A DNA stretch of 61,116 nucleotides. It comes from Elusimicrobiota bacterium (GTDB lineage Bacteria > Elusimicrobiota > Endomicrobiia > Endomicrobiales > JAPLKN01). Both the position numbers and the translations under genes were made by a program. The stretch spans positions 1 through 61,116 of the forward strand of contig JAPLKN010000074.1 of the NCBI GenBank assembly GCA_026388075.1, in the 5' to 3' direction. This document shows positions 22,171-60,182 of the stretch, in pieces. Each line of letters begins with the position of its first letter. Position 1 is the stretch's first letter. The notes under the pieces are model-generated. The model was not told the DNA's origin and did not search any database. It saw nothing but the letters and a program-made list of their open reading frames with translations.

Positions 22171-22316
22171 CAATTTCAAAAATCAAGAATCAAAACTGTT
22201 GTGTCTGCCAAGGCAGACTGATTCCAATAAGTCGCCAAAGGCGACACCTAAATTTTTCCGCCCAAGGCGGATCTGCCTAGGGCACGAGATTTTTAATCTT
22301 TGATATTTGATTTAAT
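22171..22316. repeat. Intercistronic structured element D1, consisting of heptad-periodic arms around three GC mini-hairpins.
   Basis: Left arm has CAA at 22177/22184/22191. Hairpins are GTCTGCC-aa-GGCAGAC (22203-22218), GTCGCC-aaa-GGCGAC (22231-22245) and TCCGCC-caa-GGCGGA (22257-22271). Right arm has TTA/TTG/TTG at 22293/22300/22307, which is CAA-N4 on the other strand. Confidence 0.8.
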
Positions 22317-22333
22317 AAGCCGAGGAGGATTCA

Positions 22334-23236
22334 ATGAGTGTAAAGAAAAAAATATTTTACGGGATACTGGTGTTGATGGCAGCTATATTGCTGCTCAAAA
22401 TAGCGCCGCGCTTTTTTTCCGAAGGAAAGAACGGCAAGAAAAGTATTGAGGCTGTGCCCGTAACCGTAGCAGAAGTAAAAAAGGTTTTAATTGAGGAAGA
22501 AATGCAGTTGACAGGAGATGTCCGCGGCTTAAACGAGGCCAGGCTTTACCCGAAAGTTCCGGGAAGGCTCCTACGCAAAATAAAAGATGCGGGCGATATA
22601 GTGAAAAAGGATGAAGTTGTGGCATTAATAGACCGCGACGAGCCTGGTTTAAAATTTAAGGCGGCAGAAGTTACTTCCTCTCTTGGCGGAGTTCTTACCA
22701 GATATTTTCTTGACCTCGGGCAAAATGTTAATGCGGCTACCCCGGTTTGCGAAGTGGCGGTAATTTCCCCTATAAAAATTATGGTGCGTATTACGGAAAG
22801 GGATTTTCCGCGTGTGCACATAGGAATGACGGCACGTTTTACCTGCGACCCTTATCCGGGCGAAACTTTTAATGGCCGCGTTACCAAGATGTCAAATGCT
22901 ATGGATGAAGCAACAAGATCTGCCGACGTGGAAATAGATGCGGCTAATCCCGGCAATAAACTTAAACCTGGGATGTTCGCCAATGTAAGCATTATAATCA
23001 GCTCAAAGCCGAATGCTCTTGCTATACCCAGGGATGCCCTTGCCGCTACCGGAGAAACGAAATATGTTTTCGTCGTGGATTCTTCGGGTAAGGCCAGGAA
23101 AAAGAATATTAAAATAGGAATTATCAGGGAAACTGATGCTGAAGTATTGAGCGGCCTTTCAGAAGGTGAAAAGGTGGTAACCCTAGGCTGGTACAATCTA
23201 ACCGATGGGGCTTCGGTGAGCGTGGTGGAGAAGTAA
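22334..23236 (+). CDS. Efflux RND periplasmic adaptor subunit (MFP/HlyD family).
   Basis: N-terminal anchor followed by lipoyl/beta-barrel motifs (VRGLNEARLYPKVPGRLLRKIKDAGDIVKKDEVVALID.., ..KPGMFANVSII..). GAGGAGG SD. Lies between the TolC and RND genes. Confidence 0.85.
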   Translation: MSVKKKIFYGILVLMAAILLLKIAPRFFSEGKNGKKSIEAVPVTVAEVKKVLIEEEMQLTGDVRGLNEARLYPKVPGRLLRKIKDAGDIVKKDEVVALIDRDEPGLKFKAAEVTSSLGGVLTRYFLDLGQNVNAATPVCEVAVISPIKIMVRITERDFPRVHIGMTARFTCDPYPGETFNGRVTKMSNAMDEATRSADVEIDAANPGNKLKPGMFANVSIIISSKPNALAIPRDALAATGETKYVFVVDSSGKARKKNIKIGIIRETDAEVLSGLSEGEKVVTLGWYNLTDGASVSVVEK

Positions 23237-23248
23237 TATTTGCAGTAA

Positions 23249-23392
23249 ATTAAAAATCAAAGATGAAATTTCAAAATTAAGGTATCCCACAAAACGGGAT
23301 TTGCTTAAATAAGTCCCCCCTGCTTTGTTTGCACAAAGCAAACAAGGGGGGACACTAAAATTTTGATTCTTGATATTTAACTTTTGAATTTT
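23249..23392. repeat. Intercistronic structured element D2, consisting of heptad-periodic arms around a long GC hairpin.
   Basis: Left arm has TAA/CAA/GAA/CAA/AAG at 23251/58/65/72/79. Hairpin GTCCCCCC(tgct)TTGTTTGC-acaaa-GCAAACAAGGGGGGAC spans 23313-23353. Right arm has TTG/TTG/TTA/TTG at 23363/70/77/84. The string TTTTGATTCTTGAT is the reverse complement of ATCAAGAATCAAAA in D1. Confidence 0.8.
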
Positions 23393-23446
23393 TTCTTTAG
23401 TGAAGGCTGCTTTTAACATTATGGCTAGAAAAATGAGAGGAATACT

Positions 23447-26400
23447 ATGAAGCATAAAACAGTTAAGATATTGGCTTTGCCGAAATTCGCGGTGGAGCAC
23501 CCGGTCGCCATAGCCATGCTGTATACCGGGCTTTTGGTTTTGGCTATCTCGGCATTTTTCAGAATGGGTTTGGACCTGTTCCCGGATGTGAGTTATCCGG
23601 TCATGAGCATTATCACAACCTATCAGGGTGCCGGTACCGAAGAGGTGGAAGAAAAAATAACCAAGATGATAGAATCTCAGACCGCTATCGTAAGGCATCT
23701 TAAGGAAGTAACTTCAATTTCAAGGGAAGGTCTCTCGGTAGTCATGCTTCAGTTTGAATGGGGCACGAACCTGGATAATTCAGCCAACGATGTCCGCGAC
23801 CGTCTGGGTGTTATAAGAAGACAGCTACCTACGGGGGCGGAAGACCCGGTTATCATGCGCATAGATATGAAAGATATCCCGATACTTATCATGGGAGTAA
23901 CCTCGAGCGAATCCTATTCCAAAATTTACAACATACTGGATACGGATGTCTCCAATATGATCAAGCGCGTGCCCGGCGTAGGCAATGTCATGGTGATGGG
24001 CGGCCGGGCAAGGCAGATAAACATTGACGTGGACAGGCGGCGTCTGGAAGCTTACGGCATAACCCTTTCTGATGTCAGGCGTGCGGTTGCCGCCAACAAT
24101 ATTATGCAGGCAGCAGGCAATATCCAAATAGGAATTACAGATTATATGCTGCGCGTGCCAGGAGAGTTTAATTCTCCGCAGGAGATAGCAGATTCAGTCG
24201 TTGGCATTTCCCGCGGCCAGGCCATAAAAATAAAGGATGTAGCTGATGTCCGCGACAGTCATCCTCAGGAAACGTCAAAAGTGATGTTCAACGGAGAACC
24301 GGGTGCCGTGATAATGGTGCAGAAGCGAAGTGAAGCCAACAGCATCGCCGTGGCAGACGGAGTGAAGAAAGCACTGCCTGAGATACATAAGCGTATCCCG
24401 AAAGATATAAAAATATCGCCGCTTATGGATACTTCTCAAGAAATCAGGCGTACACTTGGCAGCCTTTCAGAAACGCTTTATGTGGCTGGTTTTCTTATCC
24501 TTGGCGTAATACTTTTCTTTTTAAGAAGGGTGCGGCCTGCCGCTATAGTGTTTACCTCAATACCGATATCGCTTTTAGATTCTTTCCTCGTACAGTATCT
24601 GGCCGGATATACTATAAATATGATCTCGCTATTGGCTCTGACAATAGCCATCGGCCTGGTGGTGGACGATGCCCTGGTTGTTATGGAAAACCAGATACGC
24701 CGTCAGGAAGAATTGGGCGAAGACTCTAAAACTGCGGCCGTTAATGCAACCTCTGAGGTGGGCAGAGCGGTTACCGTGGCAACCTTTACCTCTTGCGTAG
24801 TTTTTCTTCCGATGCTGTTTGCAGGAGGCATGGCAGGTGTAATGTTCAAGCCTTTATCTATAGTTATTATAGTAACATTGCTCTTATCTCTTTTTGATTC
24901 GCTTACATTGAACCCTATGTTATCTTCGCTTTTTCTAAGAGCTGAGTCCCAAACCCGGGAAGGGAGATTTAGCCGGGTCTTTCACCATTTTGATAAAGCT
25001 TTCTCTGCTTTGGAAAATAAGTATAAAAGCCTTATATCATGGGTGCTGGAAAATCCCAAAAAGCTTGTGGCCGCTTCGGCTTCAATTTTTTTGGCAAGCC
25101 TTTTGATAGTTCCGTTCATTTCTTCGGAGTTCATGCCTGAGGAGGACGAAGGCCGGTTGCAGGTTACACTTGAACTTCCGGTCGGTACCCGAGTTGAAAC
25201 CACGCATAAAGTTATGGAAAAGACTGAAGAAGCGTTCAGGGCAATTATCCCGCCCGAATGGATAAAGGGCATGTTCTGGAGAGACGGCACCAATCCTCAA
25301 AGCAGTATGGGCGCGGCAATGGGCCAGAAACAGGGATCCAATGTAGGAATGTTTGCGGCAATGTTGGTGAGCAAAGACAAGCGTAAACTTAGCGTGTCCC
25401 AGATCAATAACAAGCTCCGCGAGAAGGTTTCAAAGATACCCGGTGTTACAAGAATGACATTCTCCACCGGCGGCATGACCGCAAACCTTATGAGTTCTAC
25501 CAAACCGATGGTTCTAAATATCTTTGGCTATGACCTTGAAGCTTCTTACGCGCTCGCTGAAAGAATAAAGAACATGATGGAGAAAGAAATAAAAGGTTTC
25601 AAAGATGTTACCATCTCGCTTGATATTACGCGGCCTGAGTATCACGTAGTTATTGACCGCGCTAAAGCAGGGGCTCTCGGCATACCTGTTCAGACAATAG
25701 CCGATACAGTGAGCCTCGCCTTCAGCCAGCAGAGAAGCGGAGTATACCGCGAAATGGGCAGCGAGTACGATATAACGATACGTCTGCGCGATGAAGACCG
25801 CAAGTCCGAGCCTGATCTGGAAAATCTTTTTGTAAGAACTAACGCGGGTGATACGGTAAGTCTTTCAAACCTCGCACGGTTTGAGAAAAAACCCGGCCCC
25901 CTTCAGATAGACCGCGAGGCTCAGCAGCGTATAATCAGAGTTGAGGCAAATATAGAAGGCAATGATCTCGGCGGTATGACCGCGAAACTTGAGAAACGCC
26001 TCGCCCTGATACCTTTGCCGGCCGGGATCTCGCTGAGTATGGGCGGCTCGGTAAAAGAGCAGAGGGAATCCTTTTTGTCACTGCTTTTCGCGCTGCTGAT
26101 CGGAATAATGCTTGTGTATATGGTAATGGCGGCACAGTTTGGATCACTGATTATACCGCTTATCATTATGTTTTCACTGCCGTTCGGTTTTGTGGGTGCC
26201 ATCTGGGTATTTGTGCTCACGGGCTATAGTTTGAGCATAACTACATTTATCGGCGTTATAATGATGGTCGGGCTTGTGGTAAAACAGGCAGTAGTCTACC
26301 TGGATTATGCGTTGCAATTAGTTGATGATAAATGGAACATTAAAGAAGCATTAAAAGAAGCCGGAAGAGTAAGGCTTCGCCCGATATTAATGACGGTAAG

Positions 26401-26596: not shown

Positions 26597-26628
26597 TTAA
26601 CTAAAATAGTTTTTTTTAAGCGGTACCA

Positions 26629-26750
26629 AATAATTCGGGGACACGTACTTAATTATTTATATAAATCTTTAGCTTACTTTAGACTTGTTACGTTTCCACC
26701 TCGTAGGTGGAAACGGTGCAAAATAATTAAGTACGTGTCCCCGAATTATT
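26629..26750. repeat. Family B element with perfect 30-bp inverted arms (AATAATTCGGGGACACGTACTTAATTATTT) and a 62-bp loop that contains a nested 9-bp hairpin.
   Basis: 26629-26658 is the exact reverse complement of 26721-26750. The inner hairpin GTTTCCACC-tcgta-GGTGGAAAC spans 26692-26714. It sits between the convergent RND and rlmD genes, and arm 2 supplies the last 7 codons plus the stop of rlmD. Confidence 0.9.
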
Positions 26751-28076: not shown

Positions 28077-28098
28077 TTTAAATCCCCGCCTATACAAC

Positions 28099-28977: not shown

Positions 28978-29064
28978 TGCCGAGGGAGGGAATCGAACCC
29001 TCACGCCACCCAAAGTGACTCGAGATTTTGAGTCTCGCGCGTCTGCCAGTTCCGCCACCTCGGC
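28978..29064 (-). tRNA. tRNA-Leu (anticodon CAA), type II with a long variable arm. No CCA is encoded.
   Basis: Minus strand reads GCCGAGG-TG-GCG-GAACTGGCAGA-CGC-G-CGAGA-CTCAAAA-TCTCG-AGTCACTTTGGGTGGC-GTGAGGG-TTCGATT-CCCTC-CCTCGGC-A. All four stems pair, the T-loop is TTCGATT, and the anticodon is CAA. Confidence 0.93.
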
Positions 29065-29332
29065 GATAATAACAGTTACCAGTGACCAGTTATTAGTTAC
29101 CAGTAACAACAAAAACAAAACTAAAAATCAAGGAACAGACGCCGAAGGCGGATTGTGAAGTTTATCCAGCACACTGTAATGTGCTGGGCCACCTCGGCAA
29201 TTTAACTACGGTTATGAGTAATGAGTATTTAGTTATGAGAAAAACAAAAATCTAACAAAAATCAAGGAACAGACGCCGAAGGCGGATTGTGAAGTTTATC
29301 CAGCACATTACACAGTGCTGGGCCACCTCGGC
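29065..29332. repeat. Two tandem 134-bp units directly abutting the 5' end of tRNA-Leu. Each ends with an 11-nt copy of the tRNA 5' end.
   Basis: GCCACCTCGGC occurs at 29054-29064 (tRNA), 29188-29198 and 29322-29332, exactly 134 bp apart. The 76-nt blocks 29123-29198 and 29257-29332 are identical apart from 5 mismatches within an 8-nt hairpin loop. The upstream 58-nt halves are heptad arrays (TTACCAG TGACCAG TTATTAG TTACCAG versus TTATGAG TAATGAG TATTTAG TTATGAG). Confidence 0.9.
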
Positions 29333-29447
29333 AAAAAGTAATTATTGAGGCAAGTTTAGTTTTGATGGGCGAAAATAATTTTATAATAATATAAATATAT
29401 TTTCAATGTTTTTTACTTTAGAGCTTCTCAATAATAACTCGTAATAT

Positions 29448-31405: not shown

Positions 31406-31550
31406 TTATTTTCTGCCGCAATGAACTTATCTTTTTTTAATAAACAGATTGATTTTTCAAAATAATATTTGTTTTTAATATCCCGATTTTTAGAATTTAA
31501 TTTTAGCAACTTCATTAAATAAAGTCAAATTGACTTGCTTTTAGATATTG

Positions 31551-31810
31551 TTATCCGCCTTCGCACCGTCCGCCAATGGCGGAGGCAGGGAAAACTATCC
31601 CGCCTTGGCGGCATAAGTCCATAGATAAATGCGAAGAAGGAACCCCCTGCTTAGTTTTGCCCTGTGAAATGCAAAGCATTTCCAGGACATGAGTCCTTGA
31701 AATCGCAAACGCGATTTCTAGGGGCCAAGCAAAACTAGGGGGTGTGCTTCGGTGCCGCGCCTGCCGGCGGGCAGGGATTCCGCCCGCTTCGCAGCGAGGC
31801 GAGCCTAAGA
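31551..31810. other. GC-rich multi-hairpin block R1. It may be a structured ncRNA or a cluster of REP-like elements. The strand is undetermined.
   Basis: Hairpins TCCGCC-aat-GGCGGA (31569-31583), CCGCC-tt-GGCGG (31600-31611) and CCTGCC-ggcg-GGCAGG (~31760-31775). A 100-nt three-way junction spans 31643-31742. Its outer stem is CCCCCT(gctt)AGTTTTGC/GCAAAACTAGGGGG, and it encloses hairpins at 31661-31686 and 31699-31718. Confidence 0.6.
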
Positions 31811-31822
31811 AATAAAAGATAT

Positions 31823-31840
31823 TATGGTCTTAAGACCATA
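31823..31840. promoter_or_regulatory. Perfect 18-bp palindrome TATGGTCTTAAGACCATA, about 77 nt upstream of the DJ-1 start (operator-like).
   Basis: Read directly and self-complementary over all 18 nt. Confidence 0.45.
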
Positions 31841-31916
31841 GAGCTTCATCTAATCAAATTGTTAAAAGACTAATTTTTTTGTATTCTACTCTTAAGATAT
31901 TCCAAGAGGTGATATC

Positions 31917-32438
31917 ATGAAAGAAAAAAAAGTTCTATTTGTTGTTGCCCAAACAAATTTTCGTGATGAAGAGTATTTTGACCCGAAAAACATTCTTGAA
32001 CAAGCCGGAATACTAACAACTACCGCAAGCATATCCAAGGGAGAAGCAACAAGCGTTTTCGGCAAAACAATTCCAGTTGAAATTTCTATCAGTGATTTAA
32101 ATCCTGATGATTATTCTGCGGTTATTTTTGTCGGCGGAGCAGGATCTAAAGTCTATTTTGAAAATCCGACGGCTCATAAGATTGCGCAAGAAATGCTGAA
32201 CAGCGGAAAAATCGTTGCGGCAATATGCATTGCCCCGACTACTATTGCTAAAGCAGGAATTCTAAAAGGCAAAAAAGCGACTTCGTTTTCGTCCGCTAAA
32301 AATGATCTTATAGCTTCAGGGGCAATTTTTACGGGTAAATCAGTAGAAAAAGACGGGAATATTATTACTGCGGACGGCCCGGATTCAGCAAAAGAATTCG
32401 GAAAAGAAATCCTGAAGGCTTTGCAGGGAAGTACATAA
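31917..32438 (+). CDS. DJ-1/PfpI-family protein (class I glutamine amidotransferase-like fold).
   Basis: Nucleophile elbow VAAICIAP. ..VIFVGGAG.. The length (173 aa) is typical. AGAGGTG SD. It is the only plus-strand gene between 26.7 and 61.1 kb. Confidence 0.88.
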   Translation: MKEKKVLFVVAQTNFRDEEYFDPKNILEQAGILTTTASISKGEATSVFGKTIPVEISISDLNPDDYSAVIFVGGAGSKVYFENPTAHKIAQEMLNSGKIVAAICIAPTTIAKAGILKGKKATSFSSAKNDLIASGAIFTGKSVEKDGNIITADGPDSAKEFGKEILKALQGST

Positions 32439-32452
32439 GCCTTCAGCTTTTA
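32412..32452 (+). terminator. Possible intrinsic terminator of the DJ-1 gene.
   Basis: CTGAAGGCTT (32412-32421) pairs with AAGCCTTCAG (32437-32446), spanning the stop codon with a 15-nt loop, and is followed by CTTTTAG. The U-tract is short. Confidence 0.35.
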
Positions 32453-32800
32453 GCTAACAACTTTTGGTTCTTAATGTAGAATCTAAGAACCGTATTTACA
32501 GTTTTTCCCCATTGAGCCGCTTATGAGTCGAGCATTTCTTCAGGAAGTTTTCGGTTTTTCGTGTCTGAGCCCCATCTTGGCAGAAGCCGAGGGGGCGAGT
32601 TGAAAAACCGCCTGAGAAATGTGAGCGAATGGCTCACGGGGTGCATTTCTTTTGACTACTTTTCTTTAGGCAAGTAAAGAAAAGTAATCCAGGGGTGCAG
32701 GGGCGGGAAAGCCCCGCGATTTTTCCCTGTTTTGTAAACAGATTATCAAAGTAATACATTCTTAACTGAGAGCTGACGACTGATAGCTGAAAGCTGTTTC
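32443..32800. repeat. Element R2/C1, made of CAG-heptad terminal inverted arms around a ~250-nt GC-rich multi-hairpin core.
   Basis: Left arm has CAG/TAG/CAA/TGG at 32444/51/58/65. Right arm has CTGA at 32766/73/80/87 and CTGT at 32794. The core holds a nested rod at 32533-32621 (CATTTCTtCAGG..CGGTTTTTC..GCCCC..GGGGC..GAAAAACCG CCTGAGAAATG), a hairpin at 32621-32637, and a perfect 12-bp hairpin at 32657-32686. Confidence 0.8.
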
Positions 32801-35273: not shown

Positions 35274-35304
35274 TGCCGCCGCCTTTTTATCCCGTCATTA
35301 GTTT

Positions 35305-35388
35305 ACCCCGTTAGAAATTTTAGCTGGCTTAGACATACGGTTAAGCCCTGCTTGAATCAACGTTTCAACCAACAATTTCTAACGGGGT
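35305..35388. repeat. Family A element A1. Arms are 15 bp and perfect (ACCCCGTTAGAAATT / AATTTCTAACGGGGT), with a 54-nt loop.
   Basis: 35305-35319 is the reverse complement of 35374-35388. It fills the cdd-pfkB spacer, and its right arm ends 1 nt before the pfkB stop codon. Confidence 0.9.
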
Positions 35389-36300: not shown

Positions 36301-36317
36301 GAGACCTCCCAAAAACA

Positions 36318-36405
36318 GTGATAAGGGGTAAGTGGTAAGGATTAAGTTAAAGGCTTAAAAATACCATGTTGTTAACTTATCACTTATCCCTTACCACTTA
36401 TCCCT
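36318..36405. repeat. Element E, made of inverted arms that each carry four exactly 7-nt-spaced TAAG motifs.
   Basis: TAAG at 36322/29/36/43 on the plus strand. CTTA at 36376/83/90/97, which is TAAG on the minus strand. The arms are only partly complementary. It fills the mtnP-pfkB spacer. Confidence 0.85.
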
Positions 36406-36409
36406 GCCG

Positions 36410-39417: not shown

Positions 39418-40724
39418 AAAGTCTCTAACTTCTCATAAATTAAGGACAGTTTTTTTGGTGTTGTTTTTGTTATTTTTATAGACTCAGTAAATTTCAGTTT
39501 TGCCTCTTCAATACTTGCTCCATTATCAAAACAGAAAGTTGCCAAAGGTTCCTTTCTGCTAATCCGTTCTCCTTGCTTTTTCTTTAACACTATACCTGCA
39601 CCGTGATTAATGGTGTCTTCTTTGGTCAGCCTCCCCGCGCCTAATAGATTCGCTGCATCGCCAACAAGTTTAGTGTCTGCATACTCCACAAAACCTTCTT
39701 CAACGGACAGTATTTCAAGAGTTTTTTGCGCTTTGGGAAGTATTTTTTCAGGATTATCAACTGCACCGGTATCTCCACTCTGATATTCTATTATTTCTTT
39801 GAATTTCATTAAAGCCTTGCCGTTTTTAAGATTATTCTCAAGCAATGTTTTTGATTTTTTTGTATTTTTTTCGCCGGCAATAAAAAGCATTCGGCTTGAA
39901 ATTTCTATGATGAGATTAACTAAGTCTTTTGGACCCTCGCCTTTCATTATATCAATTGCCTGTTTTACTTCAAGGGAGTTGCCAACCGCATATCCCAACG
40001 GCTGGTTCATATCGGTAATGAGAGCTATTGCTTTTTTCCCGAAGCTTTTTGAAATGCCGATCATTTCTTTCGCCAATCTTTTAGCCATCGTTTTTTCTTT
40101 CATAAAAGCGCCTGAGCCGGTTTTTACATCTAAAACAAGGCCGTCACAGCCTTCGGCCAGTTTTTTAGACATTATGCTTGATGCGATTAACGGTATAGAA
40201 TCAACAGTGGCGGTTACATCTCTCAGCGCATACATTTTTTTGTCAGCCGGGGCAATTTTATCTGTTTGTCCGGCCATGGCAACACCAATTTTTTTTAACT
40301 GATGAATAAATTCTTCTTTTGATAGATTTACCCGGAACCCCGGGATTGATTCCAGTTTATCTAAAGTTCCCCCGGTATGGCCTAAAGATCTCCCGGACAT
40401 CATCGGGACAATCACGCCGCAGGAAGCCGCCAACGGAGCAATAACCAAAGACGTTCCGTCGCCGACCCCCCCTGTTGAATGCTTATCAATTTTTACTCCT
40501 TCAATGCCGGATAAATCCATTGTTTCGCCGGACTCAAGCATCGCTTTTGTTAAAAAACCGGTTTCCACAGATGTAAAACCATTAATAAAAGCAGCCATAA
40601 GAAAAGCCGACATCTGATAATCAGGTATTTTTCCGGCAGTGTAGGAAGATATTACATATTTTATTTCTTCAAAGGTAAGTTTTTGAGAATTGCGTTTTTT
40701 ATGTAAGATATCTGAAATCAGCAT
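39414..40724 (-). CDS. deoA: Pyrimidine-nucleoside (thymidine) phosphorylase.
   Basis: ..DKHSTGGVGDGTSLVIAPLAA.., ..MSGRSLGHTGGTLDKLESIPG.. are signature motifs. 436 aa. Confidence 0.92.
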   Translation of the reverse strand: MLISDILHKKRNSQKLTFEEIKYVISSYTAGKIPDYQMSAFLMAAFINGFTSVETGFLTKAMLESGETMDLSGIEGVKIDKHSTGGVGDGTSLVIAPLAASCGVIVPMMSGRSLGHTGGTLDKLESIPGFRVNLSKEEFIHQLKKIGVAMAGQTDKIAPADKKMYALRDVTATVDSIPLIASSIMSKKLAEGCDGLVLDVKTGSGAFMKEKTMAKRLAKEMIGISKSFGKKAIALITDMNQPLGYAVGNSLEVKQAIDIMKGEGPKDLVNLIIEISSRMLFIAGEKNTKKSKTLLENNLKNGKALMKFKEIIEYQSGDTGAVDNPEKILPKAQKTLEILSVEEGFVEYADTKLVGDAANLLGAGRLTKEDTINHGAGIVLKKKQGERISRKEPLATFCFDNGASIEEAKLKFTESIKITKTTPKKLSLIYEKLETL

Positions 40725-40958
40725 TTTACCCCGTTAGAAACAGTAAAACTATCGTAAACTTCCAAAACTACGAAAAGCTATATTCATTGTATTTCTCTAT
40801 TCATCACTTTTTCCTAACGTTTGGCTGTTTCTAACGGGGTGAATCCCATCCGAAACAGTAAAACTATCGTAAACTTCCAAAACTACGAAAAGCTATATTC
40901 ATTGTATTTTCCTATTCATCACTTTTTATTAACGTTCGGCTGTTTCTAACGGGGTAAA
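40725..40958. repeat. Family A element A2. It is a tandem duplication (2 x 115 bp) bounded by TTTACCCCGTTAGAAACAG arms.
   Basis: Left arm 40725-40743. Right arms 40825-40840 (16/16) and 40940-40958 (19/19 reverse complement). The core GAAACAGTAAAACTATCGTAAACTTCCAAAACTACGAAAAGCTATATTCATTG.. recurs at 40737 and 40852. Copy 2 encodes the last 16 codons and the stop of punA. Confidence 0.9.
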
Positions 40959-44792: not shown

Positions 44793-44802
44793 TGTTCCTC
44801 CG

Positions 44803-44915
44803 CGCCCCGATTTATCGGGGCGACGTCTCGCCCGTCCAGCTCATTTAGAGCGGACGAGGCGGACCCGCTTCAATTGTCGTGGCCTCGCTCCGCCCTTATG
44901 GGCGAGGCGGGCATG
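44803..44915. repeat. Cluster of GC-rich imperfect hairpins in the HK-tkt spacer.
   Basis: CGCCCCGAT-tt-ATCGGGGCG (44803-44822). GTCtCGCC-CGTCCaGCTC..GAGC-GGACGaGGCG-GAC (44825-44863, 16 bp with single-nt bulges). CGCCC-ttat-GGGCG (44891-44904). Confidence 0.75.
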
Positions 44916-44989
44916 CCTCAACGAATTATGCTGGGTTCGTCTTACTTTTTTATAACATACAAGGTAAACAATTATCTTTCTTTAAAGAT

Positions 44990-50960: not shown

Positions 50961-51542
50961 TTACAAAATATAAACAGAATCTCCGTTTTTTAATCCTGCC
51001 GAATTTGCTTCGTCAGTATCTAAATGGCATTCCAATGACATTTTGTCGCTTACTCTTGATACAACGTTATCAAAAATAAGACCCCGGTCCCCCGGACATT
51101 TTATCTTTATAACCTGATTATTGCTTACTCCTAAACGTTTTGCATCGGTTGTTGTCATATGCACATGCCGTTTTGCAATTATGCACCCTTCTTTTAAGTC
51201 TATCTCGCCTTTAGGTCCAATAATTTTTAGAGGTGCTGAGCCGGCAATATTCCCGGAAATTCTTAGCGGGGCATCTATTCCCAGATTTATGCTGTCGGTT
51301 ACAGAAATTTCCACCTGAGTTGCGCTCCGAACCGGCCCTAAAATTCTGACATTTTCAAGTTGTCTTTTTTTCCCGACAATTGTTACAGTTTCTTGGCAAG
51401 AATGTTCTCCGGGCTGCATTAAATCTTTCAGTTTTGTAAGCTTATATCCCTTGCCGAAAAGTATTTCAAGGTCAGACGAACTAAGATGCACATGCCTATT
51501 TGAAACATTTGCTAATATTTTTCTATTTTCAGCGTTGTCCAT
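50961..51542 (-). CDS. pduL: PduL-type phosphate acyltransferase (phosphotransacetylase/propanoyltransferase).
   Basis: Duplicated motif SNRHVHLSSSDLEILFG.. and ..IIAKRHVHMTTTDAKRLGV.., plus ..ECHLDTDEANSAG.. Confidence 0.88.
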   Translation of the reverse strand: MDNAENRKILANVSNRHVHLSSSDLEILFGKGYKLTKLKDLMQPGEHSCQETVTIVGKKRQLENVRILGPVRSATQVEISVTDSINLGIDAPLRISGNIAGSAPLKIIGPKGEIDLKEGCIIAKRHVHMTTTDAKRLGVSNNQVIKIKCPGDRGLIFDNVVSRVSDKMSLECHLDTDEANSAGLKNGDSVYIL

Positions 51543-51658
51543 TTTACCCCGTTAGAAATAGCCTAACTTCTGTTAATATATTAATTATTGAAAAATTTAT
51601 ATACAATATCTTTAGTTGATGATTCTTCTTATAATCTAACTATTTCTAACGGGGTAAA
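51543..51658. repeat. Family A element A3. Arms are 19 bp and perfect (TTTACCCCGTTAGAAATAG / CTATTTCTAACGGGGTAAA), with a 78-nt AT-rich loop.
   Basis: 51543-51561 is the exact reverse complement of 51640-51658. It fills the whole tpiA-pduL spacer, with one arm abutting the pduL ATG and the other ending 1 nt from the tpiA stop. Confidence 0.92.
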
Positions 51659-51659
51659 C

Positions 51660-52418
51660 TTATGCATATTTTATTATTTTGGTGAATGAATCAATTTCTA
51701 AGCTTGCGCCGCCGACAAGTCCGCCGTCAATATTTGGCTGTTTCATAAGCTCGGAAATGTTATCGGGCTTCATTGAACCGCCGTATAAAATTCTGATGCT
51801 TTCCGACGCCTCGTTTCCATACATATTTCCGTACAGTTTGCGTATATAAGCATGCACTTCCTCAGCCTGCTGGGGAGTAGCCGTTTTTCCTGTACCTATT
51901 GCCCAAACAGGCTCATAGGCAATCACCAATATTTTTGACTGATCGGAATTTAATCCTGCCAAACCGTTTTTAACTTGTCTTTCTATAACCTGCATTGTAA
52001 TGTTTTTTTCTCTTTCAGAAAGACTTTCTCCAACACATACAATAGGTATAAGCCCGGCAGAAAATGCTGATTTCATTTTTTTGTTCACAGATTCGTCAGT
52101 TTCGCCGAAATATTGTCTTCGTTCGGAATGCCCAATTATCACGTATTTACAACCAGCATCAACCAGCATATTTGGAGCTATCTCTCCCGTAAAAGCTCCT
52201 TTTGCTTCCCAGAAAAGATTTTGAGCACCAAGTTTTATATTTGAATCCTTTATGTTTTGAGAAACCGCGTATAACGAAGTAAACGGAGGGCAAACCAAAA
52301 TTTCTCTATCTGAAACACTTGAACAACTTTTTTTCAGACCGTTGACCAATTCCAAAGCCTCAGGAATCGTTTTAAACATTTTCCAGTTGCCTGCCAACAA
52401 AGGTTTTCGTTTTCCCAT
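51660..52418 (-). CDS. tpiA: Triose-phosphate isomerase.
   Basis: ..LLAGNWKM.., ..IIGHSERR.., ..IAYEPVWAIGTG.., ..ILYGGS.. The track start at 52445 is GTG. The ATG at 52418 (MGKRKPLLAGNWKM) follows AAAGGGG. Confidence 0.93.
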   Translation of the reverse strand: MGKRKPLLAGNWKMFKTIPEALELVNGLKKSCSSVSDREILVCPPFTSLYAVSQNIKDSNIKLGAQNLFWEAKGAFTGEIAPNMLVDAGCKYVIIGHSERRQYFGETDESVNKKMKSAFSAGLIPIVCVGESLSEREKNITMQVIERQVKNGLAGLNSDQSKILVIAYEPVWAIGTGKTATPQQAEEVHAYIRKLYGNMYGNEASESIRILYGGSMKPDNISELMKQPNIDGGLVGGASLEIDSFTKIIKYA

Positions 52419-52457: not shown

Positions 52458-53318
52458 CTATTCCTTCCTATGTTTAAATGCCAAAGATTTCAGTAATGAT
52501 TCTTCCGAATGCATTAAACTGAAATGATTAATGTTGTGTTCATAAAGATACGTCAATGCTGGTATTCTCTGGGACCGCGGGATGATTATTTTGACGAAGT
52601 TATCGCTTCCATCTTCCCTAAAAAAGTGTTCATAATCGTAGATTACATGTTCCTTTTCTAGCGAGTCGTAGATATAAGCCAGAGTATACCATGCCTGCTG
52701 TAGATAATGGCGCTCATGCGTTCTAGTATCAGGCCCCCCTATAATACGAATTTGTGGCCTACTGGATGGACTATTATCCAATTCTATTCCCGGATTTGGT
52801 AGAGGTTCAATATAAGCATATATTGCTACGCAGTCAGCCTCTTTTTGTTCCTCAAACGCAAAAAAGGCTGCTACGTACGGTGATGCACTCCAGTCAAGTA
52901 AAGGGGATGGGAATCCGTTGTGACGCATATATATCCAGAATTCGAGAAATGGTATTTTGATGATTGATTCAGGATGTCGTGTTGTAAAAACTTTATTGTA
53001 TTCGGTTTTCCATTCTTTGTCATTTGGTAAATTCCAATTAAATTTCGTAAATGACTCAATTTCTGATGAGCACCTTTGTAAAAATCCTGCATACTCGCAC
53101 ACACTCCAGGGATTATTCGGAGAATATCTTTCTAGTGTGGTTGAAAGCTTGTATTTGCCATCTGCCAAGCCGCGGTAAAATACGAGGTGTTCATTTTGAT
53201 AGTCCCCGGCTGGAGTGAAACCATATTTATTTTTGATGTATTTGATCTTATCATTAAACTCATCCCAAATCTTGATTGTTATTTCTTCGAGCATATCTTT
53301 CTCCTGAATTCTTTCCAC
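52458..53318 (-). CDS. FRG-domain protein of unknown function, positioned in the defence island.
   Basis: ..LVFYRGLADGKYKLSTTLER.. (F/YRG motif) and ..MRHNGFPSPLLDWSASPYVAAFFAF.. (matches the QHxGxPTRLLDWTxSPxxAxYFA core of the FRG domain). Lies immediately downstream of the R-M pair. Confidence 0.7.
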   Translation of the reverse strand: MERIQEKDMLEEITIKIWDEFNDKIKYIKNKYGFTPAGDYQNEHLVFYRGLADGKYKLSTTLERYSPNNPWSVCEYAGFLQRCSSEIESFTKFNWNLPNDKEWKTEYNKVFTTRHPESIIKIPFLEFWIYMRHNGFPSPLLDWSASPYVAAFFAFEEQKEADCVAIYAYIEPLPNPGIELDNSPSSRPQIRIIGGPDTRTHERHYLQQAWYTLAYIYDSLEKEHVIYDYEHFFREDGSDNFVKIIIPRSQRIPALTYLYEHNINHFSLMHSEESLLKSLAFKHRKE

Positions 53319-53426
53319 GGTTTATGGAACGCTTCTAGTTTCGGTACGTAGTTTTATTAACTCTGCCTTTTTTTGTAAATTTATTAAAACTTTTCTTTTT
53401 TCTGGGCACCACAAGGTCGCTTATGG

Positions 53427-54434
53427 TTATGGAATCTTTTTCTTTTTTGTCTTATTAGACTTGCATTTTGTTGAATACTTGTTCGTTCGTTTTTCAGCAA
53501 TAAAAGAATGAGAACCAATATTTTTATATTCGAATAAACCGACTTGGTTCAAATATTTCTTTATCCTTTGATTCGCCAATTCAACATATTCCTTTTTAAT
53601 ATCATACCCGATATAGTGTCTGCTACCTTTTAAGGCGGCAAGGCAAGCCGTTCCTGCTCCGCAAAAAGGGTCCAATACTACATCATTTTTAAAAGTGTAC
53701 ATTTGTATCAATCTATGAGGTAATTCTTCCGGGAAAGGGGCGGGATGCCCGATGCTCCTTGCAGAAACAGCAGGAAAAGTCCATACACTTTTGGTCCATT
53801 CGATAAATTTTTCCTTTGGAATTGTGTCTTCCTTCTTATCCTTTTTTCGTGAAAATGATTCTTTAGAAAAAACCAAAATGTATTCGTGAATATCTCGCAG
53901 CACTGGATTTGCTGCCGACTTCCAACTTCCCCAAGCTGTTGAGGGACTTGCGCTTGAGGCTTTATTCCAAATAATTTCCCCCCTCATCAAATAGCCGATA
54001 TCTAGCATGTCTTCAATAATATAGGTATGAAGTGGTATATAAGGTTTCCTTCCTAAATTTGCAACATTAATACAGGCTCTGCCACCGGGAACAAGTTTAT
54101 TATATGTTTCTTTAAAAACCTTTTTCAGTAAACTCCGATACTCATTTAAGGATAAATCCTCGTCATATTCTTTTTGCACATTATATGGTGGTGAAGTAAC
54201 CATCAGATGAATACTACTATCAGGTATATCATTCATTATTTCACTCGATTTACAGTAAATTTTATCTATTTTTTCAGATGGTATAGCATTTTCTTCAAAG
54301 TTCCCATCAAAAACAGGTCTCTTGTCTGCATAAAGTTTGCTGTTGTAAAACTTTGAAGAATCATGGTTAATTCTCCCAGGAGTTCCAAAAGAGCTTGTTT
54401 TTGTACCATTGCGGCGAACAATAGTATTTTCCAT
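53427..54434 (-). CDS. Type II DNA methyltransferase, beta-class N4/N6 family. The SPPY motif suggests m4C.
   Basis: Motif IV is HLMVTSPPYN. Motif I, VLDPFCGAGTACLAA, lies C-terminal to motif IV, which is the beta permutation. HPAPFPEELP is also present. Its start abuts the stop of the upstream REase ORF. Confidence 0.88.
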   Translation of the reverse strand: MENTIVRRNGTKTSSFGTPGRINHDSSKFYNSKLYADKRPVFDGNFEENAIPSEKIDKIYCKSSEIMNDIPDSSIHLMVTSPPYNVQKEYDEDLSLNEYRSLLKKVFKETYNKLVPGGRACINVANLGRKPYIPLHTYIIEDMLDIGYLMRGEIIWNKASSASPSTAWGSWKSAANPVLRDIHEYILVFSKESFSRKKDKKEDTIPKEKFIEWTKSVWTFPAVSARSIGHPAPFPEELPHRLIQMYTFKNDVVLDPFCGAGTACLAALKGSRHYIGYDIKKEYVELANQRIKKYLNQVGLFEYKNIGSHSFIAEKRTNKYSTKCKSNKTKKKKIP

Positions 54435-55316
54435 TTATTTAGTCTCCTTGATAAGTTCTAAAAATTTTTCAGCCTTTTTTTCGTATGAAGATTCTTTATT
54501 TGAAAGTTCTATAATCTGCCCAAGTTCTTTTTTGCTTTTCATGCTTGAAAAAAAGTTCATTTCTGTAGATAACAGGGAATTAATAGTTTCCTTTAATTCT
54601 TCAAATTTATCAAGACGATTAAAACCACCCTTTTTTGTCCTTTTAATATTTTCTCCGTTATCATCTAGCGGACTAGGATTAACAGACCAAAAACCTTGAA
54701 CTATACCCGCAGTCTTTAAGTGATCAACTTTTTCATAATAACTTTGAGTTATTGGAGTATTACCAATTATAATGATCGGAATTCTTGATGCTTTAAAGCT
54801 TGAAACGCGGATATTAATGCTCTTGCCTATACCCTTTAGCATTGAATCAGATCTTAGAAGTCCCGGATTTCCCGTATGAGTACTATAATCACCTAAGCAA
54901 GTTAGATTTTTTTTCTTTAGTTCCCAGTTCCATACGATAGACATTTTAACTTCAAATATTGCCAAGATATCCTCAGGTTTTTGTTCTATTTTTTTATTCC
55001 GAGAAATAACAACATCTGCCGGAGACATATCAGTCAAAGCTAATTCTTCACATTTTGCCCCTTGAACTGCAAATAGTTTTTTGTCAGAAATAGTCTCTCG
55101 AATTAGGTCGGCTGTCCATTTTTCAGTAAATTTACCAATTAGAGAATTACGGCTTTGCAGGGTTGATTTAGCTCCTTCGTAATTTTTAGGCCAATACGCT
55201 AAATATCTTTTATCATCAGAAAAATAAAAAAGTTGTTCGGGAGAAGCAAATTTAAAAGAGTCTTCAAAAAATTTCTTTTCCACTTCCTTTGACCATAGTT
55301 GCATTGTTAATCCCAT
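54435..55316 (-). CDS. Putative type II restriction endonuclease (PD-(D/E)xK-like).
   Basis: ..MSPADVVISRNKK..(17 aa)..ILAIFEVKMS.. fits PD...ExK. It has no other family signature. It is translationally coupled (zero gap) to the methyltransferase. Confidence 0.55.
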   Translation of the reverse strand: MGLTMQLWSKEVEKKFFEDSFKFASPEQLFYFSDDKRYLAYWPKNYEGAKSTLQSRNSLIGKFTEKWTADLIRETISDKKLFAVQGAKCEELALTDMSPADVVISRNKKIEQKPEDILAIFEVKMSIVWNWELKKKNLTCLGDYSTHTGNPGLLRSDSMLKGIGKSINIRVSSFKASRIPIIIIGNTPITQSYYEKVDHLKTAGIVQGFWSVNPSPLDDNGENIKRTKKGGFNRLDKFEELKETINSLLSTEMNFFSSMKSKKELGQIIELSNKESSYEKKAEKFLELIKETK

Positions 55317-55574
55317 CCTTTTAAGCGGTGCCCGTGCCTGGATTTACTTATTTGTTTTCTTCAATTATTTTGAGAAAATCATCGGAAGTTTCCTGGTACC
55401 ACCCCAACTTGAGGTGCCAAATTGGCACTTCAAGTGAAACTCCCCCATCTGAAGATGGTACCTTCTTTTCATGTTACGCATACCTTTCCATTCACCCTCA
55501 CCTGCCCTTCGGGCTTCCTCTCCCCTCGAGGGAAAGGGATGGGGTGAGGGGCTCAATAGGGTCTAATAAATTTT
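55317..55574. repeat. Structured spacer bordering the R-M island, containing palindromes and GC-rich imperfect inverted repeats.
   Basis: ACTTGAGGTGCC-aaat-TGGCACTTCAAGT (~55407-55435, 12/13 bp), flanked by GGTACC at 55395 and 55457. CCCTCACC...GGTGAGGG encloses CCCCTCGAGGG (~55494-55550). The two track ORFs here (55328..55588 +, 55365..55556 -) are low-complexity read-throughs. Confidence 0.7.
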
Positions 55575-57196: not shown

Positions 57197-57217
57197 TCTT
57201 TTCTCCCAAATTCCTAT

Positions 57218-57580: not shown

Positions 57581-57591
57581 TTCTCTATTAA

Positions 57592-58344: not shown

Positions 58345-58371
58345 TTGTTTCCTTTTAATTGCAGTTATTTT

Positions 58372-59142
58372 TTATTTCAAGTCCAGCACATTTTGCATAT
58401 CGTAAAGACCGGGCTTTTGTTTAATTACCCACTTTGCCGCAACTAAAGCTCCCGCTGCAAGAGTATCCCGCGAGTGAGCCCTGTGAATGAGTTCAATCCT
58501 TTCTCCCGGCCCAGCAAAATAAACGGTATGATCTCCAACAATATCGCCGGCTCTTACTGATGAAATTCCGATTTCACCCTTTTTTCGCGGCCCTATTTCA
58601 CCTTTTCTGCCGTAAACTCCTACTTCTTCAATTTTCCGGCCCAAGGCATTGGCAATTATCCTGGCTAAATTCATAGCTGTTCCGGAAGGAGCGTCCTTTT
58701 TTTGATTGTGATGAAGCTCTACGATTTCCACGTCATAGGTCGGTACTTTTGACGCAATTTCTTCGGCAACTTTAAAAAGCAGGTTTACTCCCACTGACAT
58801 GTTCGGAGAAAATACTATAGGAATACCTTTTGAAGCTTTCTTTATCGCCTCAATTTGCAAATCCTTAAAACCGGTAGTGCCAATGACCATAGCTTTTTTA
58901 TTTTTCTCAGCTATTGAAAGGTGTTCAAGAGTACCGGATATATCGGAAAAATCTATAATAACATCCGAACCGCCGATTATTTCTGAAAGATCCGAAGTTG
59001 ATTTCAGTTCTTTAGGGCACTTTGAAAGAAATTCCTTGCTTTCAACTCCTCCGATTACTTTAAATTCCTTATCATCGGATAAAAGCCTTAAAATGCTTGT
59101 ACCCATTTTTCCTGCGGCACCGCATACGCTTGTATTGATCAT
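58372..59142 (-). CDS. dapB: 4-hydroxy-tetrahydrodipicolinate reductase.
   Basis: ..VCGAAGKMG.., ..IIDFS.., ..VIGTTG.., ..ELHHNQKKDAPSGTA.. Confidence 0.92.
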   Translation of the reverse strand: MINTSVCGAAGKMGTSILRLLSDDKEFKVIGGVESKEFLSKCPKELKSTSDLSEIIGGSDVIIDFSDISGTLEHLSIAEKNKKAMVIGTTGFKDLQIEAIKKASKGIPIVFSPNMSVGVNLLFKVAEEIASKVPTYDVEIVELHHNQKKDAPSGTAMNLARIIANALGRKIEEVGVYGRKGEIGPRKKGEIGISSVRAGDIVGDHTVYFAGPGERIELIHRAHSRDTLAAGALVAAKWVIKQKPGLYDMQNVLDLK

Positions 59143-59154
59143 TTTTTCTCCTCA

Positions 59155-59194
59155 CCCCTTTTGGGGCGAAGTCACTGCCCGCTCCTTCGGAGCG
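59155..59194. repeat. GC mini-hairpins in the dapA-dapB spacer.
   Basis: CCCC-tttt-GGGG (59155-59166) and CGCTCC-ttc-GGAGCG (59180-59194), read directly. Confidence 0.7.
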
Positions 59195-59211
59195 AGCGGA
59201 CCACCCATCAA

Positions 59212-60087
59212 TTATTTTAAAAGCCCGTAGTCTTTTAATGCTTTTTCAAGCTTTTGCCGGTTTGCATCTTCCATAGGACACAAAGGCAGCCTTAAATCGG
59301 GCGAACACATTCCTAAAATTCCCATTGCCGTTTTAAGCGGAATTGGATTGGTTTCTAAGAACAATGCCTTTATAAGCGGCAAAAGTTTTGAAAAAAGAGA
59401 TTTTGCCTTTCCTAAATCCTTTTCCAAATAGGCTTTTACCATATCAGCTACTTCCTTCGGCACTATATTTGCCAATACGGAAACAACCCCCGTTCCTCCG
59501 ATGGACAAAACCTCAAGAGTCAATAAATCATCTCCCGATAAAAGATCCATATTCGGACAAAGCTTATGAATCTCTGACATCTGATCCAGTGAACCGGAAG
59601 CTTCTTTGATAGCGGTTACATTTTTGCAGTCGCGGTTTATCTTTTGCACCGTTTGAGGCTCAATATTTACGCCGGTCCTACTCATAATGTTGTACAACAT
59701 CACAGGGATTTTGATTGAATCGGCAACTGCTTTGAAATGCAGATAAAGACCCTTTTGAGTAGGCTTATTGTAATACGGGGAAACTAAAAGAATCCCGTCG
59801 CAACCGGCTTTCTCGGCATATCTGCTGAGGTCTATTGCCTCTCTTGTACAATTTGACCCTGTACCAGCAATAACTTTAATCCGTTTCTTTACCGCTTTAA
59901 CAACGACGTCAATGGTATTTTTGTGTTCTTCATGCGATAATGTAGCGGATTCGCCTGTCGTTCCGCACGGAACAATACCGTTCGTGCCGTTTGAAATTTG
60001 AAATTCAACAAGCTCTTTTAATTTATCAGTATCTACACTATTTCCCTTAAACGGAGTCACTAATGCAACATAAGAACCTTGAAACAT
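59212..60087 (-). CDS. dapA: 4-hydroxy-tetrahydrodipicolinate synthase.
   Basis: ..GIVPCGTTGESATLS.EEH.., ..GTGSN.T.EAI.., ..YNKPTQ.GLY.HF.., catalytic Lys region ..VTAIKEASG.. Confidence 0.93.
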   Translation of the reverse strand: MFQGSYVALVTPFKGNSVDTDKLKELVEFQISNGTNGIVPCGTTGESATLSHEEHKNTIDVVVKAVKKRIKVIAGTGSNCTREAIDLSRYAEKAGCDGILLVSPYYNKPTQKGLYLHFKAVADSIKIPVMLYNIMSRTGVNIEPQTVQKINRDCKNVTAIKEASGSLDQMSEIHKLCPNMDLLSGDDLLTLEVLSIGGTGVVSVLANIVPKEVADMVKAYLEKDLGKAKSLFSKLLPLIKALFLETNPIPLKTAMGILGMCSPDLRLPLCPMEDANRQKLEKALKDYGLLK

Positions 60088-60107
60088 ATCCGCTCCTTTT
60101 TAAAGCC

Positions 60108-60182
60108 CTCAGCTTTCAGCCTTCGGCAAAATAATTCTTTTTTGTTTTCATTTGAAAGCTGACAGCTGATAGCTGAAATCTG
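60108..60182. repeat. Element C2, a short copy of the CAG-heptad arm family.
   Basis: Left arm has CAG/CAG/CGG at 60110/17/24. Right arm has AGCTGA at 60157/64/71 and ATCTG at 60178. AGCTGATAGCTGAAA is shared with 32783-32796. The core stem is TCAGCTTTCA/TGAAAGCTGA. Confidence 0.85.

Follow-up and report, generated by a model that had tools for sequence, protein, structure and literature searches.

Palindromic heptanucleotide-repeat elements in the intergenic DNA of an Elusimicrobiota bacterium

The stretch of DNA studied here (contig JAPLKN010000074.1 of assembly GCA_026388075.1, positions 1 to 61,116; hereafter, the window) comes from an uncultured, Endomicrobiales-like Elusimicrobiota bacterium and carries a TolC-like/HlyD/AcrB efflux operon, a single tRNA gene (tRNA-Leu), a DJ-1/PfpI gene that converges on an Na/Pi-PhoU gene, a purine-nucleoside-phosphorylase-family (PNP) gene beside a PfkB kinase gene, and a group of dap genes. 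Spacers between these genes are occupied by elements built from tandem, imperfect 7-nt units (i.e., heptads). Five of them (i.e., D1, D2, C1, E, and C2) are convergent inverted pairs that form stem-loops, and the two arrays linked to the tRNA gene are single (Table 1). In the paired form, each element consists of two convergent arrays of three to six imperfect units around a variable centre, which is a loop of 21 to 29 nt in E and C2, a set of short GC-rich hairpins spanning 79 to 95 nt in D1 and D2, and approximately 290 nt in C1. Across elements, the arms are 8 to 290 nt apart, and the total size is approximately 70 to 160 bp, or 360 bp with cargo. The two divergent (promoter) spacers of the window (19409-19884 and 31406-31916) contain no heptad elements.

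Table 1. Heptad elements of the window, their parts, and related loci. Coordinates are window positions unless another sequence is named; L numbers are our labels for comparison sequences.
Feature	Coordinates	Strand	Sequence or content	Context and remarks
D1 5' arm	22176..22203		TTTCAAA AATCAAG AATCAAA; CAA/CAG phase	Between OEP (TolC-like) and HlyD genes of the efflux operon, co-directional; pairs at 21/28 positions with 22283-22310
D1 interior	22204..22282		Three to four short GC-rich hairpins: GTCTGCCAAGGCAGAC, GTCGCCAAAGGCGAC, CCGCCCAAGGCGG	Whole-element fold z = -5.7
D1 3' arm	22283..22310		TTA/TTG phase
D2 5' arm	23251..23282		NAA/NAG phase	Between HlyD and AcrB genes of the same operon, co-directional; same family as D1; homologous to L020 16741-16796
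D2 interior	23283..23360		Two GC-rich hairpins	Fold z = -5.3
D2 3' arm	23361..23392		TTG phase
tRNA-Leu(CAA)	28978..29064	-		First 11 nt (GCCGAGGTGGC) recur at the start of each upstream 134-nt unit
tRNA unit 1, heptad array	29069..29107	-	CTGGTAA CTAATAA CTGGTCA CTGGTAA on the tRNA strand	Single array upstream of tRNA-Leu; adjoins the tRNA 5' end
tRNA unit 1, conserved 78-nt part	29123..29200	-	D-type end AAAAATCAAGGA, two hairpins, copy of the tRNA 5' end
tRNA unit 2, heptad array	29211..29239	-	GTTATGA GTAATGA GTATTTA GTTATGA (+ strand reading)	Single array upstream of tRNA-Leu, beside the tRNA gene
tRNA unit 2, conserved 78-nt part	29257..29334	-		As in unit 1 except for an inverted loop (29300-29321 vs 29166-29187)
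C1 5' arm	32440..32470		CTTCAGC TTTTAGC TAACAAC TTTTGG	Between DJ-1 and Na/Pi-PhoU genes, convergent; directly after the stop codon of the DJ-1/PfpI gene
C1 interior	32471..32763		Approximately 290 nt, strongly structured, non-coding	Terminator-like hairpin 32700-32717, then a T-tract
C1 3' arm	32764..32797		GAGCTGA CGACTGA TAGCTGA AAGCTGT	Abuts the stop codon of the convergent Na/Pi-PhoU gene
E 5' arm	36316..36350		GATAAGG GGTAAGT GGTAAGG ATTAAGT	Between PNP and PfkB kinase genes, co-directional
E 3' arm	36372..36406		AACTTAT CACTTAT CCCTTAC CACTTAT CCC	z = -5.1
C2 5' arm	60104..60124		CCCTCAG CTTTCAG CC (+ strand reading)	Between dapF and dapA, co-directional
C2 3' arm	60150..60183		AAAGCTGA CAGCTGA TAGCTGA AATCTG	z = -3.1
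Strong period-7 arrays	29073-29108, 32766-32800, 36322-36350, 36376-36404, 60153-60186
Weaker period-7 arrays	22176-22197, 29217-29237, 32438-32458, 60104-60124		Three units each	Complete the pairs
L002			16 period-7 loci in 22 kb	Metagenome-assembled genome (MAG) contig JBDRNC010000022 (JBDRNC01)
L019			12 period-7 loci in 17 kb	GCA_020523885.1
L008			One heptad-array pair	Metagenome contig
L020			One heptad-array pair	ERZ25039480
L022			Three heptad arrays	Closest relative, 76% DapA identity
Cyanobacterial heptad-bracketed four-helix-bundle loci	L027 1559-1996; L028-L035; L016 3776-4185

The period-7 signal was assessed in the intergenic DNA of the window, which was delimited by the long open reading frames (ORFs) and the tRNA gene and comprised 18 spacers (3.7 kb in total). 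Lags 7 and 14 gave the two strongest self-matches among lags 2 to 21 (z = 4.2 and 4.3, respectively, relative to dinucleotide-preserving shuffles). Five loci, all of them intergenic, contain a non-homopolymer 3-mer repeated four times with period 7, whereas 200 shuffles averaged 0.07 such loci and never gave more than 1; the period-7 excess over shuffled controls that an initial annotation of the window had anticipated is thus borne out. The same scan yielded zero loci at periods 5, 6, 8, 9, 10, and 11, so that period 7 is the only enriched one among the periods tested (5 to 11). For a 4-mer recurring three times at period 7, six intergenic loci were detected (0.20 expected), and scanning the whole window gave seven, again all intergenic. 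Tandem Repeats Finder recovered the same arrays as the period-7 scan.

Most of the triplet positions listed in the initial annotation agree with these results. Those of D1, D2, tRNA unit 1, and the left arm of C1 were correct when checked by hand, with the exception of 23377, which is TTA rather than TTG, and the period-7 scans placed the arrays of tRNA unit 2, E, C2, and the right arm of C1 where they had been reported. A supposed continuation of the phase to 29136 (as AAC, ACA, TAA, CAA, and CAG) runs through an A-rich stretch, and we do not regard it as significant. The D1 and D2 arrays are marginal when taken singly, and they are backed by a homologue with clean ATTTGAT heptads in L020 (16741-16860). 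Two independent Logan contigs (L001 and L017) carry E and C2 in a form identical to that in the window; these elements are therefore not assembly artefacts. Both contigs are short, and they were the only ones retrieved by an exact-match search with the flanking proteins; exact-match look-ups with the HlyD and DJ-1 proteins found no further contigs.

The two arms of one element had been described as only partly complementary, with selection acting on the heptad register rather than on base pairing. This description does not hold, because the arms do pair (e.g., at 28 of the 35 positions in E; z = -5.1). The fold z-scores of all folded elements range from -2.2 to -8.6, and the arms of C1 form the closing stem of a 362-nt structure (z = -6.8). 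Stems are composed of 6-bp blocks followed by a mismatch, and the commonest mismatch-to-mismatch spacing is 7 nt, including in E. Since six paired positions are followed by a mismatch, the variable position of each heptad is the unpaired one. The interior of C1 contains no ORF longer than 56 amino acids and had no Rfam match in E-value mode. As a side observation, this interior lies between convergent genes, has a very stable predicted structure, and could be an unannotated small RNA gene.

The arms are also polar. In every case, the asymmetric heptad unit points toward the centre of the element, with NAG/NAA in the 5' arm and CTN/TTN in the 3' arm. The periodicity, the inverted symmetry, and these opposite phases, all three noted initially, are real and are present in related genomes as well. 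Across 20 hairpins taken from five genomes, the 5' arms contain AG 53 times but CT 8 times and CA 42 times but TG 16 times, and AG outnumbers CT in 17 of the 20 hairpins, with the reverse in none. Because a palindrome reads the same on both strands, the polarity is an intrinsic property of the element. Two candidate explanations were tried and rejected. Stop codons in three frames as the reason for NAG heptads failed on arms that contain no stop codon (i.e., ATTACAG, CCAGT, and CAGCTNT), and G·U asymmetry as a sign of RNA-level selection was dropped, as both strands fold about equally well.

A triplet phased every 7 nt invites a reading in which a protein that follows single-stranded RNA in 7-nt steps (e.g., a HutP/TRAP-like antiterminator, a cold-shock protein, S1, or CsrA) binds to the arrays, the other arm serving as a mask. 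Such a protein would explain why NAG/NAA is phased in the 5' arms of unrelated families and why single arms are oriented consistently (CTN-type arms precede tRNA genes and AG-type arms follow genes), and binding by S1, Csp, or CsrA has been proposed for TAACTGA arrays upstream of start codons (PMC4679880). However, the heptad beyond NAG differs at every locus, the palindromes occur in both orientations and past stop codons rather than in regulatory leaders, and folding shows no strand bias. The window encodes no protein of this kind, and none of its proteins is HutP-like. The analogy with HutP sites offered in the initial annotation matches the NAG spacing but fails on the varying core, the palindromic form, and the location of the arrays, and we consider RNA recognition of this kind very unlikely.

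The same regular phase could be read at the level of double-stranded DNA. The operators of the omega repressor of pSM19035 are tandem heptads in direct and inverted arrangement, and the heptad format here recalls them; a protein seated on successive heptads could also be a nucleoid protein such as IHF/HU. Aklujkar et al. interpreted the paired heptad arrays of Geobacter as sites for a global regulator (PMC2700814). However, one genome contains many unrelated heptads, the two divergent promoter spacers contain none, the centre, whose length ranges between 8 and 290 nt, speaks against a fixed protein complex, and no ribbon-helix-helix gene lies nearby or elsewhere among the window proteins. An operator or nucleoid site is accordingly the least probable of the readings considered, and we give it hardly any weight.

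In the relatives L002 and L019, the 5' arm begins 0 to 15 nt past the stop codon, which counts in favour of a Rho-independent terminator or attenuator. Element E has a T5 tail on the sense strand, and the interior of C1 contains a terminator-like hairpin (Table 1). E is the only heptad hairpin with such a tail, however; most stems are AT-rich and mismatched and are followed by A-rich rather than T-rich sequence, and a terminator scan of the window flagged no heptad hairpin. The elements moreover lie within conserved operons (e.g., TolC-HlyD-AcrB and lysA-dapF-dapA-dapB). A role as terminators or attenuators is thus very unlikely, about as much so as the RNA-binding arrays or slightly more.

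Within this group of Elusimicrobiota, the heptad architecture is patchy. It is abundant in L002 (in a comparison with expectation, 15 period-7 loci were observed and 0.01 expected) and in L019, and it is present in L008, L020, and L022 (Table 1), while no period-7 arrays were found in the relatives L003-L006, L009-L015, L018, L021, L025, and L026. Nearly every spacer of L002 follows one layout, which comprises a stop codon, approximately four heptads, a loop of 12 to 40 nt, four to six inverted heptads, a ribosome-binding site, and a start codon. The heptads of L002 (i.e., ATTACAG, TTTCAAA, GnCCAGT, and GTTATGA) and those of L019 (i.e., NAGCGTA, CAGACnn, TTGCAAA, GGTCAAR, and GGAGTTn) belong to many different families. 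We discarded the idea that the 3' arm replaces the Shine-Dalgarno sequence, since ordinary GGAGG-like sites usually come after the 3' arm, and the idea that matching arms bracket each gene as a cassette, which is true of one L002 gene only and is no general rule. We also observed that the loops of L002 (e.g., 1530-1550, 8428-8455, 14960-14985, and 17803-17822) and of L019 contain an A-rich AAAGAC / GTCTTT motif in either orientation across unrelated heptad families (e.g., GTAAAAGCAAAGACAAGAC and GTAAAGACAACAAAATAC).

Families recur at unrelated sites. In the window, the 3' arms of C2 and C1 belong to one family (89% over 27 nt), D1, D2, and both tRNA units have a common AAAAATCAAGRA end, and each family has two to four copies. 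The homologue of D2 in L020 lies at a non-orthologous site, between rpiB and tkt, and the similarity (84% over 56 nt) includes non-repeat sequence. A CTGGTNA array adjoins tRNA-Leu in the window and tRNA-Met in L022 (87% over 30 nt). In L002, the ATTACAG family occurs three times, with its loop in both orientations relative to the genes. Conversely, one and the same site may differ between genomes: the dapF-dapA spacer is 17 to 43 nt long in L018, L020, and L025, holds C2 in the window and a TTGCAAA hairpin in L019, and consists of 299 nt of GC hairpins in L022 (6317-6615). To judge from these comparisons, the heptad families appear to be dispersed, and not orthologous, within and between genomes.

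The tRNA-linked units illustrate how the arrays may change. Two tandem 134-nt units (29065-29334) lie upstream of tRNA-Leu, and each, read on the tRNA strand, opens by repeating the first 11 nt of the tRNA. Their 78-nt parts are identical save for one hairpin loop, which is inverted between the copies. Heptads 1, 2, and 4 of the two units differ by the same CC/TG change, and heptad 3 has TTA in both; the concerted change pointed out in the initial annotation is therefore real, and it stands beside 78 nt that are otherwise identical. A parallel pattern (i.e., ATGA, ATGA, ATTA) is found in the L022 array after dapA. Copies e and f of L002 keep their variant heptads in one order and differ by one whole heptad. 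Rfam searches (the whole window at the gathering threshold; C1 and the tRNA spacer in E-value mode) matched tRNA-Leu only and left the 78-nt unit unmatched. The tRNA units look as if recurrent insertion or duplication had regenerated the tRNA 5' end, and, on the strength of these alignments, the arrays appear to turn over fast and in concert, with hairpin-mediated rearrangement.

Such turnover could also be a purely local affair. According to this alternative, the arrays are microsatellites that arise by in-place slippage of 7-nt units, with the second arm produced by template switching; they would be immobile and functionless, and the families would be alike through favoured heptads. Slippage has been credited for the heptanucleotide excess of prokaryotes (Mrazek 2007, in the form cited by PMC4679880 and PMC4692102), and the arrays do differ by whole heptads and change much faster than their flanks. 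On the other hand, loops and flanks are shared as well as heptads (i.e., between L002 e and f, between L002 c and d, and between D2 and L020), the order of variant heptads is kept between copies, and a polarity of 53 AG to 8 CT is not expected of slippage. We consider local microsatellites an unlikely explanation, albeit one with a real chance of being correct.

Arrays of this kind have been published from other bacteria, and the initial suggestion of a possibly undescribed repeat architecture therefore does not hold: heptad arrays, often in convergent pairs, were reported for Xanthomonas (PMC4692102) and Geobacter metallireducens (PMC2700814). More generally, in many prokaryotes heptanucleotides are reportedly the most strongly over-represented of the long simple-sequence repeats, with polymerase slippage as the tentative cause (Mrazek 2007, as relayed in PMC4679880 and PMC4692102). 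Each Xanthomonas genome contains approximately 185 GGGAATC arrays, which are imperfect, mostly of four units, and 89 to 93% intergenic (Rehm et al. 2015, PMC4692102). Their mean distance from the preceding ORF is 28 nt, few occur between divergent genes, and they are transcribed; 70 to 75 array pairs per genome are convergent and capable of forming stem-loops, and length and sequence vary between close species (PMC4692102). The elements described here resemble them in their imperfect 7-nt units, their intergenic location near gene ends and not between divergent genes, and their convergent pairs. They differ in that Xanthomonas has one G-rich heptad per genome, with G-quadruplex potential, whereas here a single genome has many AT-rich families that share an AG/CA core and lack G-tracts. 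No cargo-bearing centre such as that of C1 has been described for Xanthomonas.

The class 3 repeats of the G. metallireducens genome are MTYCTGA heptads in tandem runs of five, paired on opposite strands at variable distance, and there are eight such pairs (Aklujkar et al. 2009, PMC2700814). One of them separates proB from proA, which are co-transcribed, and the sites were read as those of a global regulator (IHF/HU). On the basis of the published consensus, their CTGA core is that of the C1 and C2 arms in the window, and the sibling classes described there have 8-nt units, as does one of the cyanobacterial cassettes considered below (L031). Direct TAACTGA arrays immediately precede start codons in marine Beggiatoaceae and in some cyanobacteria and Bacteroidetes (MacGregor 2015, PMC4679880). 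They share with our elements a CTGA-core heptad, two to six copies per array, and a patchy phylogeny; between strains, the TAACTGA arrays have indels in 7-nt steps. In being upstream of start codons, they match the 3' arm of our elements in both position and strand, and L022 carries a literal TAACTGA TAACTGG TCACTG ahead of a tRNA gene. Unlike the elements described here, TAACTGA arrays are nearly always direct (1 inverted case in 170), and a single heptad dominates the genome.

Cyanobacterial short tandemly repeated repetitive (STRR) sequences have the consensus sequences CCCCAGT, CAACAGT, and TTGGTCA. They are like our arrays in unit length, intergenic location, and CAG(T) core. STRR heptamers of Calothrix PCC 7601 are among the repeats cited in PMC4692102. 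The heptanucleotide-repeat class thus takes in the cyanobacterial STRR sequences, the Xanthomonas GGGAATC arrays, and the Geobacter MTYCTGA pairs. New here are the phylum Elusimicrobiota and the many families per genome, and the kind of repeat itself was already known. Among the papers searched, we found none linking Elusimicrobia with such heptad repeats.

Repetitive extragenic palindromic (REP) sequences of proteobacteria, including BIME and REPIN elements, as well as miniature inverted-repeat transposable elements (MITEs), are short imperfect palindromes in inverted pairs at hundreds of intergenic sites, typically after stop codons in operons. REP elements are transcribed as stem-loops that can stabilise the upstream mRNA; they have a conserved GTAG and depend on an RAYT transposase, and MITEs have defined target-site duplications. 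In contrast to the arms described here, REP arms are not tandem repeats, and no conserved GTAG was found beside the arms of the window elements.

With somewhat better than an even chance of being right, in our estimate, the elements are REP/MITE-like dispersed palindromes of the heptanucleotide-repeat class that have been reshaped by slippage and hairpin template switching. The parts of this reading differ in strength; we are highly confident of the classification and moderately so of dispersal and mobility, and we have little confidence in any RNA-level role. The elements would behave as REP/MITE-type selfish DNA that settles at safe sites (i.e., after stop codons in operons, between convergent genes, and beside tRNA genes). 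Their arrays may turn over by slipped-strand mispairing in 7-nt steps and by template switching within the hairpin. Because they lie inside operons, the elements are probably transcribed, and the likeliest effect would be that of an intercistronic or 3' stem-loop acting as a decay barrier or processing site; most would not be classical terminators.

Several observations weigh against this interpretation. Of the MITE-type traits, terminal inverted repeats and several dispersed copies are present, but the copies within 61 kb are few. The window proteins, which represent 61 kb of the genome, include no transposase, RAYT, Y1 transposase, or other mobilising gene and no insertion sequence. Neither a clean target-site duplication nor an empty/filled pair was obtained for the Elusimicrobiota elements, whose nearest relatives have 76% DapA identity; the ends of D1, D2, and the L020 element show no clear target-site duplication, and the nearest relatives (DapA, 76%; Na/Pi-PhoU, 52 to 59%, with one short partial match of 69%) are too distant for insertion boundaries to be read. 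The minimum free energies of the two strands reveal no consistent preference for the transcribed strand and so give no specific pointer to an RNA-level role. Finally, slippage alone fails on the 7-nt unit, on the polar AG/CA core in unrelated families, and on the TTA kept in heptad 3, and no model accounts for the 7-nt unit, the AG/CA polarity across families and phyla, and the persistent mismatch at the seventh position.

The same architecture was found in cyanobacteria. The first 50 kb of Nostoc punctiforme plasmid pNPUN01 contains nine period-7 loci with convergent pairs and the same 5'-AG / 3'-CT polarity, and plasmid alpha of Nostoc PCC 7120 contains mostly single arrays. The pairs on cyanobacterial plasmids, pNPUN01 among them, often enclose a small four-helix-bundle gene that matches the Pfam family 23S_rRNA_IVP (PF05635), with a weaker bAvd-like match. 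At least three period-7 units adjoin 9 of the 10 four-helix-bundle genes on one side at least and 7 of the 10 on both sides. The heptad differs by locus (e.g., TCAGGAG, GGCAGAG, GGGTGTA, and AAAGCTA); among the ten cassettes, one (L031) has 8-nt units and one has direct instead of inverted arrays. In Picosynechococcus PCC 7003, a cassette lies between cas10 and cmr3, and the same junction in PCC 7002 (pAQ6) lacks approximately 415 nt (L031 vs L036; the gap was placed by affine-gap global alignment). Another cyanobacterial cassette, likewise within a cas operon, is located between cas6 and cas4. A heptad-bracketed unit can thus be present or absent as a block. Among the papers searched, we found none describing heptad-bracketed four-helix-bundle cassettes, and no PF05635 homologue was found in the Elusimicrobiota sequences examined.

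These loci raise the doubtful idea that the heptad-armed palindromes are one cross-phylum class of mobile cassettes with polar ends, 5'-(N4 NAG)n ... (CTN N4)n-3', that are read by a strand-tracking enzyme. The cyanobacterial form would carry a 23S_rRNA_IVP / Avd-like gene, and the Elusimicrobiota forms would be cargo-less or RNA-cargo derivatives. DnaG primase initiates at the trinucleotides CTG, CTA, and TTA, which the CTN/TTN phase of the distal arm matches; more speculatively still, the polarity might mark palindromes on which priming can take place ahead of folding. If such a cassette class exists, the intergenic heptanucleotide excess of prokaryotes would be the footprint of a transposition-like process and not of polymerase slippage.

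Other features of the window include a second palindromic family without heptads, found at 35300-35388, 40722-40840 (with a 115-bp tandem duplication extending to 40955), and 51540-51660. Its inverted ends, 17 to 19 nt long (TTTACCCCGTTAGAAAT / ATTTCTAACGGGGTAAA), stand on either side of entire AT-rich spacers that separate co-directional genes. The proximal copy at 51543 leads directly into the downstream ATG (ATTTCTAACGGGGTAAAATG) and could sequester or supply a ribosome-binding site. Clusters of short GC-rich hairpins stand out in this AT-rich genome at 19409-19884, 31406-31916, 44793-44989, 55317-55574, and 59143-59211; their style (e.g., CCGCCCTGGGCGG, GTCCGCCAATGGCGGAG, and GCTCCTTCGGAGC) is that of the hairpins inside D1, D2, and L022 6317-6615, and they are probably another REP-like family. 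Between tpiA and folK, which are adjacent in the syntenic regions of L018 and L020, the window has genes for an FRG-domain protein, an N6/N4 DNA methyltransferase, and a 293-amino-acid protein (52458-55316), probably an inserted restriction-modification or defence islet. The minus strand at 3401-19408 holds an ORF of 5,335 amino acids, three 1,000-amino-acid samples of which had no Pfam match. Positions 1-3400 are repeat-rich (internal repeats of 25 to 47 nt) and have no long stop-bounded ORF; this region is probably coding and runs off the end of the window.

Elements of this type have practical consequences, since they break short-read assemblies and inflate predictions of structured RNA in MAGs. 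Why bacteria build up intergenic repeats of 7 nt, and not of 6 or 8 nt, is an old question (Mrazek 2007, as cited in PMC4679880 and PMC4692102). To this question, the window adds a new phylum, many unrelated families of one architecture in a single genome, a polarity that is common with Nostoc, and a stem composed of 6 bp plus a mismatch. Taken together, these features favour a directional process over simple slippage, and such a process is open to study in tractable hosts (i.e., Nostoc, Xanthomonas, and Geobacter).

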